Assembly: GCA_041663005.1 (NCBI GenBank)
Contig: JBAZRK010000002.1
Span: 205,402 to 269,401 of the forward strand
DNA: 64,000 nt
Source of the DNA: Minisyncoccota bacterium
Lineage (GTDB): Bacteria; Patescibacteriota; Minisyncoccia; Phycocordibacterales; UBA9973
Direction of reading: 5' to 3'
Under the pieces are notes generated by a model that was not told the DNA's origin, did no database searches, and saw only the letters and a program-made list of their open reading frames with translations. Every line of letters starts with the position of its first letter. Position 1 is the first letter of the stretch. The translations under genes and the position numbers were made by a program. This document shows positions 1,322 to 33,626 of the stretch, piece after piece.

Positions 1322-3469
1322 ATGGAAAGAGATTACCCGTTAGAGAAAGTTAGAAACATTGGAATTATCGCGCACATCGATGCCGGGAAGACTACGACTA
1401 CTGAGCGTGTGCTTTTTTACACTGGAGTATCACACAAAATAGGAGAAGTTCACGACGGAGAAACTACCACCGACTGGATGGAGCAGGAACGAGAACGCGG
1501 AATCACAATTACTTCTGCGGCAGTTACTTGTTTCTGGACACCTACTTACGCGCTTGCAGATAAAACCAAGAAGCATCGTTTCAACATCATCGACACACCA
1601 GGACACATCGACTTTACCGTAGAGGTTAAGCGTTCTCTCCGCGTACTCGACGGAGCTGTTGTCGTTTTCGACGGCGTGGCCGGAGTAGAGCCTCAATCTG
1701 AAACTAACTGGAGATATGCCGACGAGGCGAAAGTTCCTCGCGTTTGTTTCGTAAACAAGCTTGACCGAACAGGCGCATCCTTCGAGCACTCATATGCCAC
1801 AATCCTAGACCGACTTACGAAGAAAGCAGTAAGAATGCAGATTCCTATCGGCCTAGAAGAGAAGCACGAAGGAGTGGTGGACCTTCTCAATATGAAGGCG
1901 TACTATTTCGAAGGAGAAATGGGCAACAAGGTTATTGAAAAAGAAATTCCGGAAGAATTAAAGAAAGAAGCGGAAGGATACCACCACGAGCTCATAGAAA
2001 AGATTGTTGAAACGGACGACAAGATGATGACCGAATACTTGGAGGGAATGACTCCATCCATAGAGACTTTGAAGAAAACTCTCCGCAAGGCGGTTATCGA
2101 CAACAACATTTTCCCAGTATTTGCCGGCAGCGCCCTCAAGAACAAAGGGGTGCAATTGGTGCTCGACGCCGTTGTCGACTACCTACCGTCACCACTAGAC
2201 ATTCCACCGATAGGGGGAGTGGACCCTAACACTGACGAGAAAGCTCTACGCCATGCTTCTGATGAAGAACCTTTCGCAGCACTTGCCTTCAAGGTGGCTA
2301 CCGATCCGTTCGTTGGACAGCTCATATTCTTCCGAGTATATTCCGGAACTCTTGCAGCTGGAAGCTACATCTATAACCCTCGCACCAGGAACAAAGAACG
2401 CATCGGCCGAATTTTGCGTATGCATGCCAACGACCGAGAAGAAGTGAAAAAAGTTTTCGCCGGAGAAATTGCCGCTGCTGTGGGACTCAAAGACACAATT
2501 ACCTCAGATACTATCTGCGACGAGAACAATCCTATCGAGCTTGACCGAATTGTCTTCCCTGAGCCTGTCATCTCTCTCCGCATTGAACCTAAGACCAAGT
2601 CCGACCAGGAGAAAATGGGTATGGCGCTTAACCGTTTGGCCCAAGAAGATCCGACCTTCAAAGTTTCTACCGACCAAGAAACCGGGGAGACAATCATCGC
2701 TGGAATGGGAGAGCTTCACCTTGAAATCATTGTGGACCGTATGAAGCGAGAATTTTCCGTTGAAGCTAACGTCGGCAAGCCACAGGTTGCTTATCGCGAG
2801 ACAATTACGACAAATGCCGATGCGGAAGGTAAATACATCAAGCAGTCAGGAGGACGCGGAAACTACGGTCACGTCAAGATTAAAATTAAACCAATGGAGC
2901 TTCTCACCAAAGAAGAACTGGAAGATTTGCCGAAAAATACCAAGCGCGACGACCATTTCGAATTTGTTAACAACATCAAGGGAGGTGTTATTCCACAAGA
3001 ATACATCGCGCCTTGTGAGAAGGGCTTCCGTGAAGGTTTGGACCGTGGAGTGCTCGCCGGATTTAAAATGGTTAACGTTTCCGTCAATCTCTGGGACGGT
3101 AGCTATCACGAAGTGGACTCGAACGAAATGGCTTTCAAAATTGCCGCTTCGATGGCAATACAAGACGCTTGCAAGAGTGCCAAGCCGGTAATCCTCGAAC
3201 CGATGATGAAAGTTGAAGTTGTTACCCCGGAGAAATTTATGGGAGACGTCACCGGTAACCTCTCTTCTAAGCGAGGACTTATCGAAGGTATGGAAGACCG
3301 AGGAATGAACAAGGTTATGCGCGCGATAGTGCCGCTCTCCGAAATGTTCGGATATATGACCGGACTCCGCTCAATGACCGAAGGCCGCGCTTCTTTCACT
3401 ATGGAATTCTACCGTTACGACATTGTGCCTAACAATGTTGCCGAGACAATCATTGCCGCTAGGAAATAA
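1322..3469 (+). CDS. fusA: translation elongation factor G
   Basis: N-terminal GTPase motif [32 protein letters not shown]; 715 aa typical of EF-G. Confidence 0.95.
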
Positions 3470-3491
3470 CGTAAACAAATTTTACCGGTAC

Positions 3492-3515
3492 GGATTTTTT
3501 AAGCTTAAAAAATCC
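3492..3515. terminator. perfect 24-nt palindrome/hairpin downstream of fusA (putative terminator)
   Basis: GGATTTTTTAAGCTTAAAAAATCC is a perfect inverted repeat giving a 12-bp stem. Confidence 0.4.
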
Positions 3516-3595
3516 TGAAGTTTTCGGCTCGACAGCCTCAAAACCCCTCAAAAATCTGTTTCCGTTATTTTCTGTTTTTTGCTATTATATTAATA

Positions 3596-28959: not shown

Positions 28960-29304
28960 TTATTTAACTTCCTGCAAGATTCTTTCAAATGTTTTCGGAT
29001 GGAATTCTGCAAACAAAGAAAGAATTTTTCGGTCAAGCATTATGTTTTTCTTCTTTAGGGCACCGATGAGCTTGGAGTACGAAATTCCTTGTTCACGAGC
29101 TCCGGCGTTAATCTTTATATTCCACAGTTTGCGATTGTGGGACTTCTTGTCCTTGCGGTGAGCAAACGAATAGTTACCGGCGTGCAAAAGCGCGTCCTTT
29201 GCTTGACGTTCCTTAGTGCTGCGACCATGTCGCATACCTTTGGTCTGCTTTAATACGCTCCTTCTCCTTTTTAATGCATGTACTCCTTTCTTTACTCTTG
29301 TCAT
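28960..29304 (-). CDS. rplT: 50S ribosomal protein L20
   Basis: MTRVKKGVHALKRRRSVLKQTKG is the canonical L20 start. Confidence 0.9.
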   Translation of the reverse strand: MTRVKKGVHALKRRRSVLKQTKGMRHGRSTKERQAKDALLHAGNYSFAHRKDKKSHNRKLWNIKINAGAREQGISYSKLIGALKKKNIMLDRKILSLFAEFHPKTFERILQEVK

Positions 29305-29309
29305 TGGTT

Positions 29310-29504
29310 TTAGCTAAATGGTAATAAGTGGCTTTTCGGCTTGTTCTTGATAACGAAGTTTACTCCGCTTTTACCTGCAAGCTGCTTGCTGCGGGATTGT
29401 TTGGCATTGAAATGGTTGAAGCCGGCCTTGCGAGAAAGAACCTTCCCGTTTTTGGTAAGCTTTAATCTTTTGCTGTATGATTTATTTGTCTTCATTCCTT
29501 TCAT
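29310..29504 (-). CDS. rpmI: 50S ribosomal protein L35
   Basis: 64 aa, K-rich; lies between infC and rplT. Confidence 0.85.
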   Translation of the reverse strand: MKGMKTNKSYSKRLKLTKNGKVLSRKAGFNHFNAKQSRSKQLAGKSGVNFVIKNKPKSHLLPFS

Positions 29505-29505
29505 A

Positions 29506-30009
29506 TTATTTTTTCTCTATGGTTACTGTTAAGCCTTTTGGACCTCTCTTATATGAGTCCGAAATTTTATAATCCTCAGTAATCAAATGTAGTACCCGGT
29601 CTAACCTTTCTCTTAGGAATTTCTCCTCCATATACTTAGCGCGACCCGAGAGGAAAAGCTCTACCTTGATTCTGTGTCCTTCCTTAATCCAACCTGAAGC
29701 GGTCTTCGCTTTAAGCCCTAAGTCATGGTCGCCGGTGCCTATTTTGATTTGAATGGACTTGGTCTCGGTGCGGTTCGCTCCCGCCTTCGCCTTCTTTAAC
29801 TTTTTATTGGCGTCGTATTGATACTTGCCGAAATCCATTATCTTTGCGACCGGGGGATTGCTTGTGGGGCCTATCTCGATAAGGTCCAGACCTTTGGCCA
29901 TGGCCAACTCTAGGGCATCCTTTATGCTCAAAATTCCGAGATTTTTATTTTCACTGTCCAAAACCCGAAGCTCTTTCGCCCGTATTTGATTGTTTATTCT
30001 TTCTCGCAA
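29506..30009 (-). CDS. infC: translation initiation factor IF-3
   Basis: INNQIRAKELRVLDSENKNLGI… covers the IF3 N- and C-domains. Confidence 0.85.
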   Translation of the reverse strand: MRERINNQIRAKELRVLDSENKNLGILSIKDALELAMAKGLDLIEIGPTSNPPVAKIMDFGKYQYDANKKLKKAKAGANRTETKSIQIKIGTGDHDLGLKAKTASGWIKEGHRIKVELFLSGRAKYMEEKFLRERLDRVLHLITEDYKISDSYKRGPKGLTVTIEKK

Positions 30010-30062
30010 TTGATATTAGATACCATCCAAGTAAAATGGAAGACTTCGAAATAATAGCGTAT

Positions 30063-30093
30063 TTGACACTAAAAGTCAAACTAGTGGTATAAT
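30063..30093 (+). promoter_or_regulatory. promoter with extended -10 (TGGTATAAT at 30085-30093); the ATG at 30100 implies a leaderless transcript
   Basis: TTGACA at 30063-30068, TGGTATAAT at 30085-30093, ATG 7 nt downstream. Confidence 0.45.
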
Positions 30094-30099
30094 TTAAGC

Positions 30100-30429
30100 A
30101 TGGAAGGAAAAGACGGACATATTCTTTCATTCCACGCCCATAAACACCCTGCTCCAGACCACGATGAGGCAGAGCGCAATTTCGACAATAAGGAAAAAGA
30201 AATAAAAGAAAGGATTGCTATGCTTTTAAGATGGAAAAGTAGCGATGACCCTGATCTGGGAGAATCTGAGCGTGAGGAGTACAAATACCAAGTCGAGAAT
30301 TTCCGAAAGCTTTCTCAAGGGGTAGCCGTAGAGGCTGAAATTAAAGAAAGATACGCTGGGTGGACAAAGGGCGACTTTGTGCGGATTTTGCGTGAAATAG
30401 GAGAAGAGTTTCCTAGAACATTCGAATAA
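30100..30429 (+). CDS. hypothetical small acidic protein
   Basis: ORF preceded by a strong promoter; no recognisable family. Confidence 0.4.
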   Translation: MEGKDGHILSFHAHKHPAPDHDEAERNFDNKEKEIKERIAMLLRWKSSDDPDLGESEREEYKYQVENFRKLSQGVAVEAEIKERYAGWTKGDFVRILREIGEEFPRTFE

Positions 30430-30485
30430 GACAGTCTACAAGAGTTGTTGGATGTTTTTGGCATACAAAATGCTAGTATATAAAA

Positions 30486-30935
30486 ATGGCTGCTTATGCT
30501 GAAAACAGAAAAGCGCGCTTTAATTACGAAATCCTCGAAAAATACGAGGGAGGTATTGAGCTTTTGGGTACAGAAGTAAAGTCCGTGCGCAACGGACAGA
30601 TGTCTCTTGAGGGCGCCTTCGTCGTGGTGCGAGGCGGGGAAGCATTCCTCATAAATGCCAACATCCCTCCATATCAAGCCAAAAACGCGGGAGAAGGATA
30701 CGACCCACTACGTAACAGGCGAATCTTGTTGACGAAGAAAGAGATTAAAGAACTCTCAGGGAACGAGAAGAATAAGAGTTTGACAATAGCGCCTATTTCA
30801 GTGTATAATAAAGGAAGAAAAATCAAGGTAGAGATTGCTTTGGTGAAGGGAAAGAAAAAAACAGATAAAAGGCAGACTATTCAAAAAAGAGAAACTGATC
30901 GCGAGGTCAGGAGAGAGTACAAAAGAGGTTCGTAA
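30486..30935 (+). CDS. smpB: SsrA-binding protein SmpB
   Basis: NRKARFNYEILEKYEGGIELLGTEVKSVRNG is the SmpB signature. Confidence 0.85.
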   Translation: MAAYAENRKARFNYEILEKYEGGIELLGTEVKSVRNGQMSLEGAFVVVRGGEAFLINANIPPYQAKNAGEGYDPLRNRRILLTKKEIKELSGNEKNKSLTIAPISVYNKGRKIKVEIALVKGKKKTDKRQTIQKRETDREVRREYKRGS

Positions 30936-30956
30936 GAACATTGATAAGAAAATATG

Positions 30957-31354
30957 GGGATGCAAGGCATAGACAGTTGGCTCATTGTCATCGATGCATG
31001 TCGAGAATGAACGTAATCTCGTGAAAATTCGTTCAATAGCTTAATTGCAAAATTAGCTTCCAAAACTAAAGCTGTTGTTTCTTCATACTTTAGTATGAAG
31101 GACTTTGTTTTAGTTCCAGCTTTCGCGTAAGCCAAGGTTGGCGTCTCTCTTATAGACTTCCGATATATAAGCTGAGGTGTAATATTATCGGGATAGGGGA
31201 AAGAATGTCTCGGTTTTCTCCCGAAACAAAGAGACTCGGTTAAAAAATATTTGGCACGCTTCATAATTTTTTAATCTAAACCAAAAAGCGCGATAAACAT
31301 GTAGACTTCCTTACAAAAACCTTCTGCACGGGGATTCGATTTCCCCCATCTCCA
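30957..31354 (+). ncRNA. ssrA: tmRNA (ssrA), tRNA-Ala-like ends, candidate 27-aa tag reading frame
   Basis: The 5' GGGGAUG (30957-30963) pairs with the 3' CAUCUCC (31347-31353), including the G3·U70 wobble that is the alanine identity element. Discriminator A at 31354. T-arm GGGGA-UUCGAUU-UCCCC at 31330-31346. An AAUAGC element sits before a GCA resume codon at 31047, and the frame runs to UAA at 31128-31130 encoding AKLASKTKAVVSSYFSMKDFVLVPAFA. Lies immediately downstream of smpB. Confidence 0.55.
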
Positions 31355-31396
31355 CACATTTTAATTTTAAAACATGAGCTTAACCTTTCATGGATT

Positions 31397-33340
31397 TTGT
31401 GCTACCATAGTCACATGGATTTTAATTTTCTAAATCAAAAAGAAGAGCCAGGAAAGAAGAAAAGAGCACCCAAACAAACGAAATTTGCCGGGAACATTTT
31501 AGGGGCGATTATTTTCTTTATGCTCATTACGGCGCTCTATTTAGTAGTTTCGGGTGGAGACAAACCTAAACCCGAGGTTGCCATCTCTGAATTGGCGCAG
31601 GGGGTAGTCTCTGGGGAAGTAACTAGTATTTTAGTTGAGGGAGATAAGCTTACTGTTACCTACAAGGATGGCGCAGTAAAAACTTCAAAAAAAGAATCAG
31701 ACGCATCGCTTTCACAAACATTAGCTAACTATGGCGTCACCAGCGAGGCGCTCGGAGCGACCGAGATACAAATAAAGAGTGAGAGTGGATTTATGTTTTG
31801 GTTTGTTAATATTTTGCCGTTTCTCCTGCCGGTAGTTTTCATTCTGCTTTTCTTTTGGTACTTGTCTCGACAGGTGAAAGGGGCTGGGATGCAAGCATTT
31901 ACCTTCGGACAATCCAAGGCTCGCATTACCGATCCGAACGACAAGAACAACAGAGTTACATTCAAAGACGTTGCCGGTTGCAAAGAAGCCAAAGAAGAGC
32001 TGAAAGAAATTGTAGATTTCTTAAAAAGTCCGAAAAAGTTTTTAGACATTGGCGCCCGGATTCCAAAAGGCGTTATGCTTACAGGTTCTCCTGGAACAGG
32101 GAAGACCTTGCTAGCCAGGGCCGTAGCCGGGGAAGCTTCTGTGCCGTTTTTTCATTTGTCTGGTAGTGAATTCGTAGAGATGTTCGTGGGGGTTGGAGCG
32201 TCTCGGGTGAGGGATTTGTTTAAAATGGCCAAGCGTGCAGCTCCAGCAATAATTTTCGTAGATGAAATAGATGCTATTGGACGTACTCGAGGAGGAGGTT
32301 TCGGTGGAGGCAATGACGAGCGTGAACAAACATTAAACCAGATATTGGTGGAGATGGATGGTTTTGAGCCGAACGATAAAGTCATAGTTATGGCAGCAAC
32401 CAACAGACCCGATGTGCTCGATCCAGCTCTCATTCGCCCGGGACGTTTTGATAGAAAAGTAATGCTTGATCTTCCTGATCGGGCGGATCGTGAAGAAATA
32501 TTAAAAATTCATGCAGTAAAGAAACCTCTCGCTGAAGATATAAATCTCAAACTAATTGCTGAGCGTACACCAGGATTTTCTGGCGCAGATTTATATTCAT
32601 TAATGAACGAAGGCGCGATTCTCGCCGCGCGAGAAAACAGGAAAAAAGTTTTCCAATTTGATTTAATCCGCGCCATTGAGAAAGTCATGCTCGGGCCCGA
32701 GAGAAAGAGCCACTTGCTTTCTAAGAAAGAAAAAGAAATTACCGCGTATCACGAAGCAGGGCATGCGATAGTTGCGTCAGTTCTTCCGCATGCAGATCCG
32801 GTGCACAAAGTTTCTATTATCTCCCGAGGCAATGCCGGCGGGTATACTCTGAAACTTCCACTCGAAGAAAAAAGATTACAATCCAAAAAAGAATTCATTG
32901 ATGACATTGCTATGTCTCTCGGTGGATATGTCGCTGAGCAGATGATGTTCGGGGATATTACTACAGGCCCCTCAAGTGATTTACAAGTAGCCACAAATAT
33001 CGCCCGAGCCATGGTGACCCGATGGGGGATGTCCGAGCTCATCGGTCCGATAGCATTGACCGAATCTCCCGGGCGCGTGCAATACGGTGAAATTCCAGAA
33101 AAAGAATTTTCAGAAAATGTAGCCACAAAGGTGGACGGTGAAGTATCGCGCATAATAAATGACGGAATGAAGTCTGCGGAGAAGGTTATTACGGAAAACA
33201 AGAAGGCCTTTACTGCCATTGCCGAGAAATTGATTGAAGTAGAAACGATAGAGCAAGAAGAATATGAAAAAATTCTCGTAGCGCACGGAATATTGTTAAA
33301 AAAGAAAGACATCGTCGCTCCTGTCGAGGGGATTAAATAA
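31397..33340 (+). CDS. ftsH: ATP-dependent zinc metalloprotease FtsH
   Basis: AAA Walker [20 protein letters not shown] zinc motif, N-terminal TM helices. The start may be the ATG at 31412. Confidence 0.9.
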
Positions 33341-33388: not shown

Positions 33389-33462
33389 CCGTCCTTAGCT
33401 CAGTTGGTTAGAGCACAGAGCTTATACCTCTGGGGTCCTTGGTTCGAATCCAAGAGGACGGA
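33389..33462 (+). tRNA. tRNA-Ile with anticodon UAU (manual fold)
   Basis: Acceptor CCGTCCT/AGGACGG, D-arm GCTC-AGTTGGTTA-GAGC, anticodon stem CAGAG/CTCTG with loop CTTATAC (anticodon TAT), T-arm CTTGG-TTCGAAT-CCAAG, discriminator A; CCA not encoded. Confidence 0.6.
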
Positions 33463-33626
33463 CACTAAAAATCTAAAAAATTTACCTCGTACGGGCTTGT
33501 AGTTGCTCGATTTTACAGAGTGTCTCTTGTTTTATTTTTTCTCCTGTTTTCTTTTGCAAAGTTTTCCAAAAAACAGTGGTTTTCCACTTTACATTGAGGG
33601 GCTAACTGCGTGATAATGATAGTCCA

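Follow-up and report, generated by a model that had tools for sequence, protein, structure and literature searches.

Closest described systems

In transfer-messenger RNAs (tmRNAs), the mRNA-like domain (MLD) has a published length range of 48-126 nt, and the stop codons lie in the loop of helix 5, in Escherichia coli and generally (PMC1168896). According to cryo-electron microscopy work, the MLD of E. coli is folded and dense inside the pseudoknot ring. Small MLD helices named 'helix m' have been predicted in E. coli, B. anthracis and C. crescentus by energy alone, without phylogenetic support (PMC1168896). In M. pneumoniae, whose cells lack ClpXP, Lon does most of the degradation of the 27-aa tag, which is called 'unusual long' against the 11 residues of E. 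coli and the 14 of B. subtilis (PMC8403727). A literature search on the tmRNA tags of the candidate phyla radiation (CPR), Parcubacteria or Patescibacteria found nothing specific. In this work we analyze the tmRNA gene (ssrA) located at positions 30956-31354, on the forward strand, of a 64-kb stretch of DNA of a Minisyncoccota bacterium (contig JBAZRK010000002.1), referred to as the window, and compare it with the tmRNAs of related bacteria. A preliminary description, made from the sequence alone, had proposed a tmRNA between smpB and ftsH with an unusually long tag and an 8-bp hairpin inside the tag frame, and named Infernal with RF00023, ARAGORN and pseudoknot covariation as checks.

The gene shares with the standard one-piece tmRNA (RF00023, E. 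coli SsrA) the tRNA-like domain, G3·U70, the T-arm, a long P2, four pseudoknots, a GCA resume codon after an A/U-rich upstream element, a stop codon in the helix 5 loop, a tag end of hydrophobic residues plus Ala, and an adjacent smpB. It differs in the number of encoded tag residues (27, and 10 in E. coli SsrA), in an extra covarying in-frame hairpin upstream of helix 5, usually with a UUCG loop, and in a CCA that is not encoded, GCAC at the base of P2, a probable promoter inside smpB and a score below the default ARAGORN threshold. The length of its MLD lies within the published range.

Identification of the tmRNA gene and its relatives

30956..31354, + strand: tmRNA (ssrA), mature product of 399 nt to the discriminator A (RF00023, ARAGORN -ps and covariation in 58 sequences)

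An Rfam scan of the whole window gave a single tmRNA match, to RF00023, at 30956-31357 of the forward strand (115.4 bits, E = 2e-44). The alignment covers the full model (positions 1-374 of 374) and the score is well above the gathering score of 47, so that the Infernal check bears out the location of a tmRNA between smpB and ftsH. The acceptor stem had been paired correctly in the preliminary description (GGGGAUG with CAUCUCC, including G3·U70), but its 5' end had been set at 30957; the 5' end is 30956, one base earlier, because GGGG begins there. The 3' CCA of the mature molecule is not genome-encoded (...CUCCA is followed by CAC). The ARAGORN check was more divided: with lowered thresholds (-ps), on a 700-nt sub-region, the program found the same gene and tag (30956-31355, resume codon 31047, tag AKLASKTKAVVSSYFSMKDFVLVPAFA*), but with default settings it reported three tRNAs and no tmRNA in the whole window, and again no tmRNA in the sub-region. 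Default ARAGORN thus misses this ssrA, which would explain a gap in any ARAGORN-based annotation.

A SmpB scan of species-representative genomes yielded 80 loci (L001-L080) of Nomurabacteria, Paceibacterota, Zambryskibacteria and related Patescibacteria. With the window tmRNA as query, nhmmer found a homologue directly 3' of smpB in 77 of them, at about 2950-3520 in most loci; the remaining three reach contig edges. The closest relative is 85% identical to the window tmRNA, and the set is therefore diverse enough for covariation analysis. Alignment A1 contains the window and 57 ingroup tmRNAs (58 sequences), and its positions are numbered from tm1, which corresponds to 30956 of the window.

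On the basis of the alignments presented here and below, we are confident that 30956-31354 of the forward strand is a genuine, canonical one-piece tmRNA of Paceibacterota/Nomurabacteria (Patescibacteria, CPR), very probably with a translated tag frame of 27 codons, a tag that belongs to a clade-wide family and a coding stretch that can pair over most of its length.

Structure and covariation of the tmRNA

Elements of the structure in the window, all on the + strand:
30956-30962 GGGGAUG / 31347-31353 CAUCUCC (tm1-7/392-398): acceptor stem P1, with G3·U70 and the discriminator A at 31354
30974-31001 / 31297-31326 (tm19-25/365-371, 30-33/358-361, 42-46/342-346): helix P2
31002-31035: pseudoknot 1 (PK1), helices H3 (tm47-50/63-66) and H4 (tm53-58/75-80)
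31043..31054: candidate resume-codon hairpin AAUU[GCAA]AAUU, from the predicted MLD fold
31116-31120 / 31137-31141 (tm161-165/182-186): core of helix 5, with the stop codon UAA in the loop
31142-31193: PK2, helices H6 and H7 (tm187-192/219-224, 194-199/211-216, 203-210/231-238)
31196-31235: PK3, helices H8 and H9 (tm241-247/261-267, 252-256/276-280)
31238-31292: PK4, helices H10 and H11 (tm283-293/311-321, 300-306/331-337)
31330-31346 (tm375-379/387-391): T-arm, 5 bp GGGGA/UCCCC with the 7-nt loop UUCGAUU

Since RNAalifold, on the full and MLD sub-alignments, gave only fragments of the pseudoknotted fold, the structure was composed manually, on the basis of the Rfam alignment and of inspection, and then tested by pair counts. 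Across A1, 91.4% of cells are paired, compared with 82.7 ± 0.2% in shuffles (none of 500 reaches the observed value) and 37-49% in slid registers, and both sides change in 70 of the 101 pairs, compared with 42 in shuffles and 23-33 in slid registers; the sequences are phylogenetically related, and these shuffle statistics overstate independence.

In the tRNA-like domain, G3·U70 is kept in 58/58 tmRNAs, and acceptor pairs 4 and 5 switch together from G-C/A-U to A-U/C-G in 12 relatives. The T-arm is paired in 100% of cells with compensatory change in 5/5 pairs; this arm and the discriminator A had been called canonical before, and they stand. The D-loop analogue shows invariant G11, G12 and GAC (tm17-19), and the anticodon arm is absent, as in a tmRNA. 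P2a, P2c and P2d are 81-100% paired, and a switch is seen at the P2 pairs tm45/343 (24 sequences) and tm46/342 (23 sequences). All four pseudoknots are supported in both stems, with compensatory changes in seven of the eight and H7 as the invariant one. PK1 is 96-99% paired, with compensatory change in 5/6 pairs of H4; PK2 is 95-99% paired, with a covarying H6 and an almost invariant H7; PK3, where the alignment is gappy, is 69-82% paired, with compensatory change in 12/12 pairs; in PK4, H10 is 99.7% paired with 10/11 pairs covarying, and H11 90% paired with 5/7. Some relatives carry insertions in this part of the molecule: 45-58 nt in helix 6 of PK2 in L014 and L027 (tmRNA position 216), 32 nt in PK3 in L061 (position 275) and 11 nt between the PK4 stems in L028 and L067 (position 325).

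Helix 5 is 96.6% paired, with compensatory change in 5/5 pairs. In the predicted MLD fold of the window its stem extends to 8 bp, and its tip GC[GUAA]GC (31125-31132) displays the UAA. The preliminary description had stated that in E. coli the helix 5 hairpin follows the stop codon, which is wrong, as the stop codons lie in its loop (PMC1168896). The window thus has a normal helix 5, and the hairpin of the tag frame is an extra upstream helix and not a displaced helix 5. Resume codon and stop codon both lie in GNRA-type loops in the predicted fold, in sequences too invariant for covariation; for the resume-codon hairpin, the inner 4 bp are invariant in the 58 sequences.

Reading frame of the tag

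31047..31130, + strand: tag frame, with the GCA resume codon at 31047-31049, 27 codons (AKLASKTKAVVSSYFSMKDFVLVPAFA) and the UAA stop at 31128-31130

The consensus resume codon of the Rfam alignment falls on GCA 31047, which is also the choice of ARAGORN with relaxed thresholds. It is preceded by AAUAGC at 31035-31040, upstream of UUAAUU-GCA, and the 27-aa frame to the UAA stays as it was first described. The resume codon works as frame start without an AUG or Shine-Dalgarno sequence, and the C-terminal peptide (...AAKLASKTKAVVSSYFSMKDFVLVPAFA) has a hydrophobic end, ...VPAFA. An open frame of 21-29 codons begins at the aligned resume codon in all 75 usable relatives.

Length variation within the frame is restricted to multiples of three. 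Distances from the resume codon to the hairpin core are 25, 28, 31, 34 or 37 nt, those from the hairpin to helix 5 are 26, 29 or 32 nt, and those from the resume codon to helix 5 range between 51 and 69 nt, each in one phase in 58/58 sequences, whereas length changes in the non-coding linkers (those in PK3, in the loop of helix 5, inside P2, and between PK1 and the resume codon) occur in all phases. The three codon positions have entropies of 0.64/0.63/1.04 upstream of the hairpin and of 0.30/0.21/1.08 in the DFAF linker, as for third-position wobble. Both results argue that the frame is translated from GCA 31047. They also bear on a start further downstream, at an Ala or Val codon just before SPYF, which would leave a tag of 16-19 aa and which relaxed ARAGORN chose in L010, L023, L035 and L045 (19-aa tags). 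GCA 31047 is the resume codon by the Rfam consensus, UAAUUGCAAAAU shows little or no variation among the 58 sequences, and the stretch between 31047 and the hairpin has a length of 3n in every sequence, expected only if it is translated, with the highest variability at third positions. The downstream start was rejected because of this 3n length variation and codon-position entropy upstream of the hairpin, and we consider it very improbable.

A clade-wide family of long tags

Homologous tags of 21-29 aa are encoded by 75 tmRNAs of Nomurabacteria/Paceibacterota. Their consensus shows a basic N-terminus, AKL[AT]SK.KA, a core SPYFGM.DFAFA, and the endings PAFA, SALA, SAYA or SASA; examples are AKLASKVKAAVSPYFGMNDFAFAPAFA, ...DFAFASVSALA and, in a Zambryskibacteria-like outgroup, AKNIVAKAKSVVSPYFGVNDFAFAYVRA. 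The 27 residues of the window are therefore long by general standards, and the first impression of an unusually long tag is correct with respect to E. coli (11 aa), but this length is the norm in the clade, to judge from the aligned frames.

The window tag is a divergent member, with SPYFGM changed to SSYFSM and DFAFA to DFVLV. Its SSYFSMKDFV core is shared by L087, a locus from a different organism with the tag AKLGFRQVSSYFSMKDFVPVNAFA; identity to the window is 72% for its tmRNA and 80% for its SmpB. As the variant core recurs in L087, it is a lineage trait and not an assembly error. An 18-mer search gave 32 matches, 31 of them to unrelated sequences and one to a tmRNA. A search of metagenome contigs with an exact 25-mer from the hairpin of the window gave no match, and the contigs that encode an identical SmpB are too short to include the tag. 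Two of them, the Logan contigs L081 (SRR6484324) and L082 (SRR18595301), which come from independent assemblies, are 100% identical to 29985-30978 of the window and break off at one and the same position; the conserved 5' end of the tmRNA, common to co-occurring relatives, likely splits the assembly graph there.

The departures of the window tag from the consensus (P to S, G to S, AFA to VLV), together with the silence of default ARAGORN and the missing CCA, are what might be expected if this ssrA were a decayed pseudogene, or if the true gene were the ORF on the opposite strand:

30881..31264, - strand: open reading frame (ORF) of 127 aa, antisense to the tmRNA; spurious

However, no helix is disrupted, and the window adds to the covariation; its tag frame stays open up to a stop in the loop of helix 5, smpB is intact, and an encoded CCA is also missing in the tmRNAs of many relatives. 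The divergent residues extend or preserve RNA pairing and recur in the independent lineage of L087. No Pfam family was found for the antisense ORF, which is not conserved: among the 75 relatives, the median length of the longest antisense stretch without a stop over the tmRNA is 69 aa, and only seven have one of 100 aa or more. The pseudogene was rejected for its intact helices, frame and smpB, and the antisense gene for its lack of a family and of conservation, in agreement with the earlier opinion that this ORF is most likely spurious; the probability we would leave to the two together is negligible. In L083 and L084, a similar minus-strand orphan gene is called just downstream of the tmRNA.

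Tags of Mycoplasma are acidic or polar in their N-terminal half. Those of Mycoplasma and Mesoplasma, which are degraded by Lon, resemble the window tag in a length of about 27 aa, a hydrophobic, aromatic-rich composition, an AFA-type end and a host with a strongly reduced genome, but the N-terminal half of the window tag is basic (AKLASKTK). The Mycoplasma-type comparison made previously extends to length and an AFA-type C-terminal ending only (27 residues ending in PAFA here, with an internal DFAFA in relatives); the likeness is one of style, and may be a case of convergence.

Pairing inside the tag-coding stretch

31081..31100 (tm126-133/138-145), + strand: tag-internal hairpin CUUCAUAC-UUUA-GUAUGAAG, codons 12-18
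31064-31072 / 31107-31115, + strand: outer helix of the long tag hairpin (tm109-117/152-160), surrounding the inner hairpin and joining codons 6-9 to codons 21-23

The 8-bp hairpin noticed in the preliminary description is present at 31081-31100 (-10.5 kcal/mol, z = -4.3, 0/200 shuffles equally stable), but it is not peculiar to this genome. A local hairpin of -3 kcal/mol or better is found in 72/75 relatives, usually in the form CAUAC[UUCG]GUAUG, which derives from the codons CCA UAC UUC GGU AUG. The inner 5 bp (tm129-133/138-142) are 85-98% paired in A1, and the outer 3 bp are mostly window-specific and largely unpaired elsewhere. In several relatives the pairing persists through changes of sequence: L002, L026 and L066 show UAC to UUC (Tyr to Phe) together with a synonymous GGU to GGA that restores the pair; in L013 and L018, Met is replaced by Lys or Glu, pairing with a CCU Pro codon; L004 has the peptide changed to SPYANMGD and yet an 11-bp stem with a GCAA loop; and in the outgroup this place is taken by a hairpin in a shifted register, CUCCA[UAUUU]UGGAG. 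Codon choice in the hairpin is strongly skewed, with TAC:TAT 61:10 and TTC:TTT 58:15, compared with 35% TAC and 22% TTC in smpB; for the other Phe codons of the tag the TTC:TTT ratio is 93:76.

The outer helix was seen in the whole-MLD fold of the window and then counted in A1, where 92% of its cells are paired (34-42% in slid registers). The pair tm112/157 is A-U in 26 sequences and G-C in 13, through synonymous codons of Val (GUA/GUG) and Phe (UUU/UUC), and L087 keeps the helix with different codons and amino acids. Parsimony counts on a neighbor-joining tree are probably inflated by tree error, and their use was qualitative only. From about codon 6 on, the coding stretch can thus pair in nearly all relatives, first as a long hairpin, usually with a cUUCGg tip, and then as helix 5.

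In a recoding test, each peptide was left unchanged and its codons were replaced by draws from the pool of tag codons used in the family. The native MLD is more stable than the same-peptide recodings in 73/75 tmRNAs (median z -1.9), a figure that, as the sequences are related, also overstates independence. For the window, the native MLD folds at -34.2 kcal/mol and the recoded ones at -23.4 ± 4.0 kcal/mol (z = -2.7, 0/200 recodings equally stable).

The 'helix m' elements of other bacteria are likewise small MLD helices at tag codons or in the resume region, and the AAUU[GCAA]AAUU of the window is of that kind; the mid-ORF hairpin differs from them in its conservation across about 75 species, with the support of the recoding test and of some compensatory changes. 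Structured tag-coding RNA is an extension of behavior already known from tmRNAs.

Several observations weigh against our reading of the locus. Besides the default ARAGORN result and the relatedness of the sequences, no second assembly was seen to carry the exact tag of the window, as both of the identical Logan contigs end 23 nt into the gene. With regard to the pairing, the RNAalifold consensus leaves the tag hairpin out in the full and in the MLD sub-alignments; the inner 5 bp are nearly invariant, with few compensatory events (tm132/139 is A-U in 53 sequences and U-A in 3); and AAAGC (Lys-Ala) and GCUUU (Ala-Phe) are complementary by nature, so that part of the pairing could follow from conservation of the peptide. 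These last points would suit an explanation in which conservation of the peptide brings hairpin and outer helix along as by-products, without a function at the RNA level and with selection on the tag only, for example as a binding site for an adaptor or a protease. The same explanation would account for S, P and Y/F being conserved as amino acids in 72-75 of the 75 tags, and for C-ending Phe codons being favored tag-wide, also outside the hairpin. It is harder to reconcile with the poorer folding of same-peptide recodings, with compensations that involve a synonymous partner (GGU to GGA with UAC to UUC, GUA to GUG with UUU to UUC), with the longer stem and GNRA loop of L004, which has no FG residues, with the shifted hairpin of the outgroup, and with the outer helix that L087 keeps despite different amino acids. 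We regard it as unlikely, though as the alternative that deserves consideration.

The pairing of the tag region is conserved and is probably selected at the RNA level. In the reading that we prefer, selection for RNA structure, the hairpin would hold an unusually long MLD in a compact form inside the pseudoknot ring up to the time of translation, and might also shield it from nucleases. A wider proposal, which we put forward tentatively and with less than even confidence, is that the Paceibacterota/Nomurabacteria tmRNAs may form a distinct structural variant, in which nearly the whole tag frame lies in a covarying hairpin, with a cUUCGg tip and Lys-Ala codons paired to Ala-Phe codons, that the ribosome must unwind. 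RNA pairing and degron would then constrain each other, and a part of the conserved tag, for example KVKA versus AFA, as well as the P-to-S, G-to-S and AFA-to-VLV changes of the window, would be there for RNA structure and not for protease recognition.

Probable promoter and genomic neighborhood of smpB-ssrA

30100-30429, + strand: ORF of 109 aa between infC and smpB
30486..30935, + strand: smpB (Pfam PF01668, E = 2.9e-50), with the stop codon 20 nt before the 5' end of the tmRNA
30780..30809, + strand: sigma-70 consensus TTGACA-18 nt-TATAAT inside smpB, 12/12 match
31397-33340, + strand: ftsH, with M41 and AAA matches
33389-33463, + strand: tRNA-Ile with anticodon UAU, directly 3' of ftsH (ARAGORN; Rfam, 69 bits)

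A protein of a 'Candidatus Paceibacterota' metagenome-assembled genome is 100% identical to the SmpB of the window, and many 'Candidatus Nomurabacteria' proteins are 82-88% identical to it. The sigma-70 consensus inside smpB lies about 147 nt upstream of the tmRNA, and is found at the same smpB offset in 61/75 relatives. The codons of the hexamers (Leu-UUG, Thr-ACA, Tyr-UAU, Asn-AAU) are fixed at synonymous sites and the spacer codons vary. To judge from these sequence data, it is likely the ssrA promoter, which would give a leader of about 140 nt to be removed by RNase P.

ftsH adjoins smpB-ssrA in 66/80 loci, in two arrangements. The order in the window (28960-33340) is rplT-rpmI-infC (-), smpB-ssrA (+) and ftsH (+), and in the close relatives L083/L084 it is ftsH (-), smpB-ssrA (+) and infC-rpmI (+). 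The smpB-ssrA module is inverted in place between infC and ftsH, and a single inversion accounts for both arrangements; for this reason the linkage was not read as functional evidence, and the adjacency of ftsH as an argument for FtsH as the tag protease was set aside.

The 109-aa ORF is also a gene call in the identical Logan contigs and has no recorded Pfam family. A tRNA 3' of ftsH is also present in relatives such as L006, L010, L016, L073 and L078. In bacteria, AUA is usually read by a lysidine-modified CAU tRNA; the UAU anticodon suggests a different AUA-decoding strategy here.

Detection of ssrA in the clade

Across the 80 related loci, ARAGORN reported 25 tmRNAs by default and 67 with relaxed thresholds, and all 20 of the default misses that were tested with Rfam were recovered at the gathering threshold, with 67-127 bits. 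The base of P2 reads GCAC (31326-31329, tm371-374), and not GGAC as in the Rfam consensus, in the window and in all 57 relatives of the alignment; it faces AGAC at 30971-30974 (tm16-19). E. coli is known to have two tandem G·A pairs, of which one would accordingly be A·C in these tmRNAs, and this A·C might contribute to the low ARAGORN score. Pipelines that depend on default ARAGORN would leave ssrA unannotated in a large CPR clade, and a false antisense protein may be annotated instead.

Proposed trans-translation pathway

The steps that follow are taken from established knowledge of trans-translation. The gene would be transcribed from the promoter embedded in smpB, RNase P would cut the 5' end, and the 3' end would be trimmed and completed by the CCA-adding enzyme. 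Alanyl-tRNA synthetase would charge the tmRNA with Ala through G3·U70, and the molecule would enter stalled ribosomes with SmpB and EF-Tu. The ribosome would then switch to the GCA resume codon, its own helicase unwinding the tag hairpin and helix 5, and would terminate at UAA after appending A+AKLASKTKAVVSSYFSMKDFVLVPAFA (A plus 27 residues). The hydrophobic, aromatic C-terminal part of this tag would direct the product to an ATP-dependent protease. As a further point against our reading, FtsH is the only ATP-dependent protease seen in the 64-kb window; motif scans for Lon, ClpP and ClpX were negative within this window, a result of little weight for 64 kb out of a larger genome, and a literature search on the protease complement of Patescibacteria was uninformative.

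Implications for the clade

The locus is an ordinary new addition to a well-known family, and the long tag and the in-frame hairpin are traits of a large CPR clade. What is new is modest: the tag frame appears to be largely paired under both RNA and peptide constraint, the promoter is likely embedded in smpB, and the usual detector misses most such genes at default settings. The alignment provides a consensus of the long degradation tag shared by this clade, whose members have very reduced genomes; the case is parallel to that of Mycoplasma, where a long aromatic tag accompanied a protease switch. The understanding of trans-translation is unchanged. The tag-coding RNA of this clade appears to be selected both as a peptide and as a helix, which adds the question of whether a structured long MLD matters for ribosome loading or for RNA stability.

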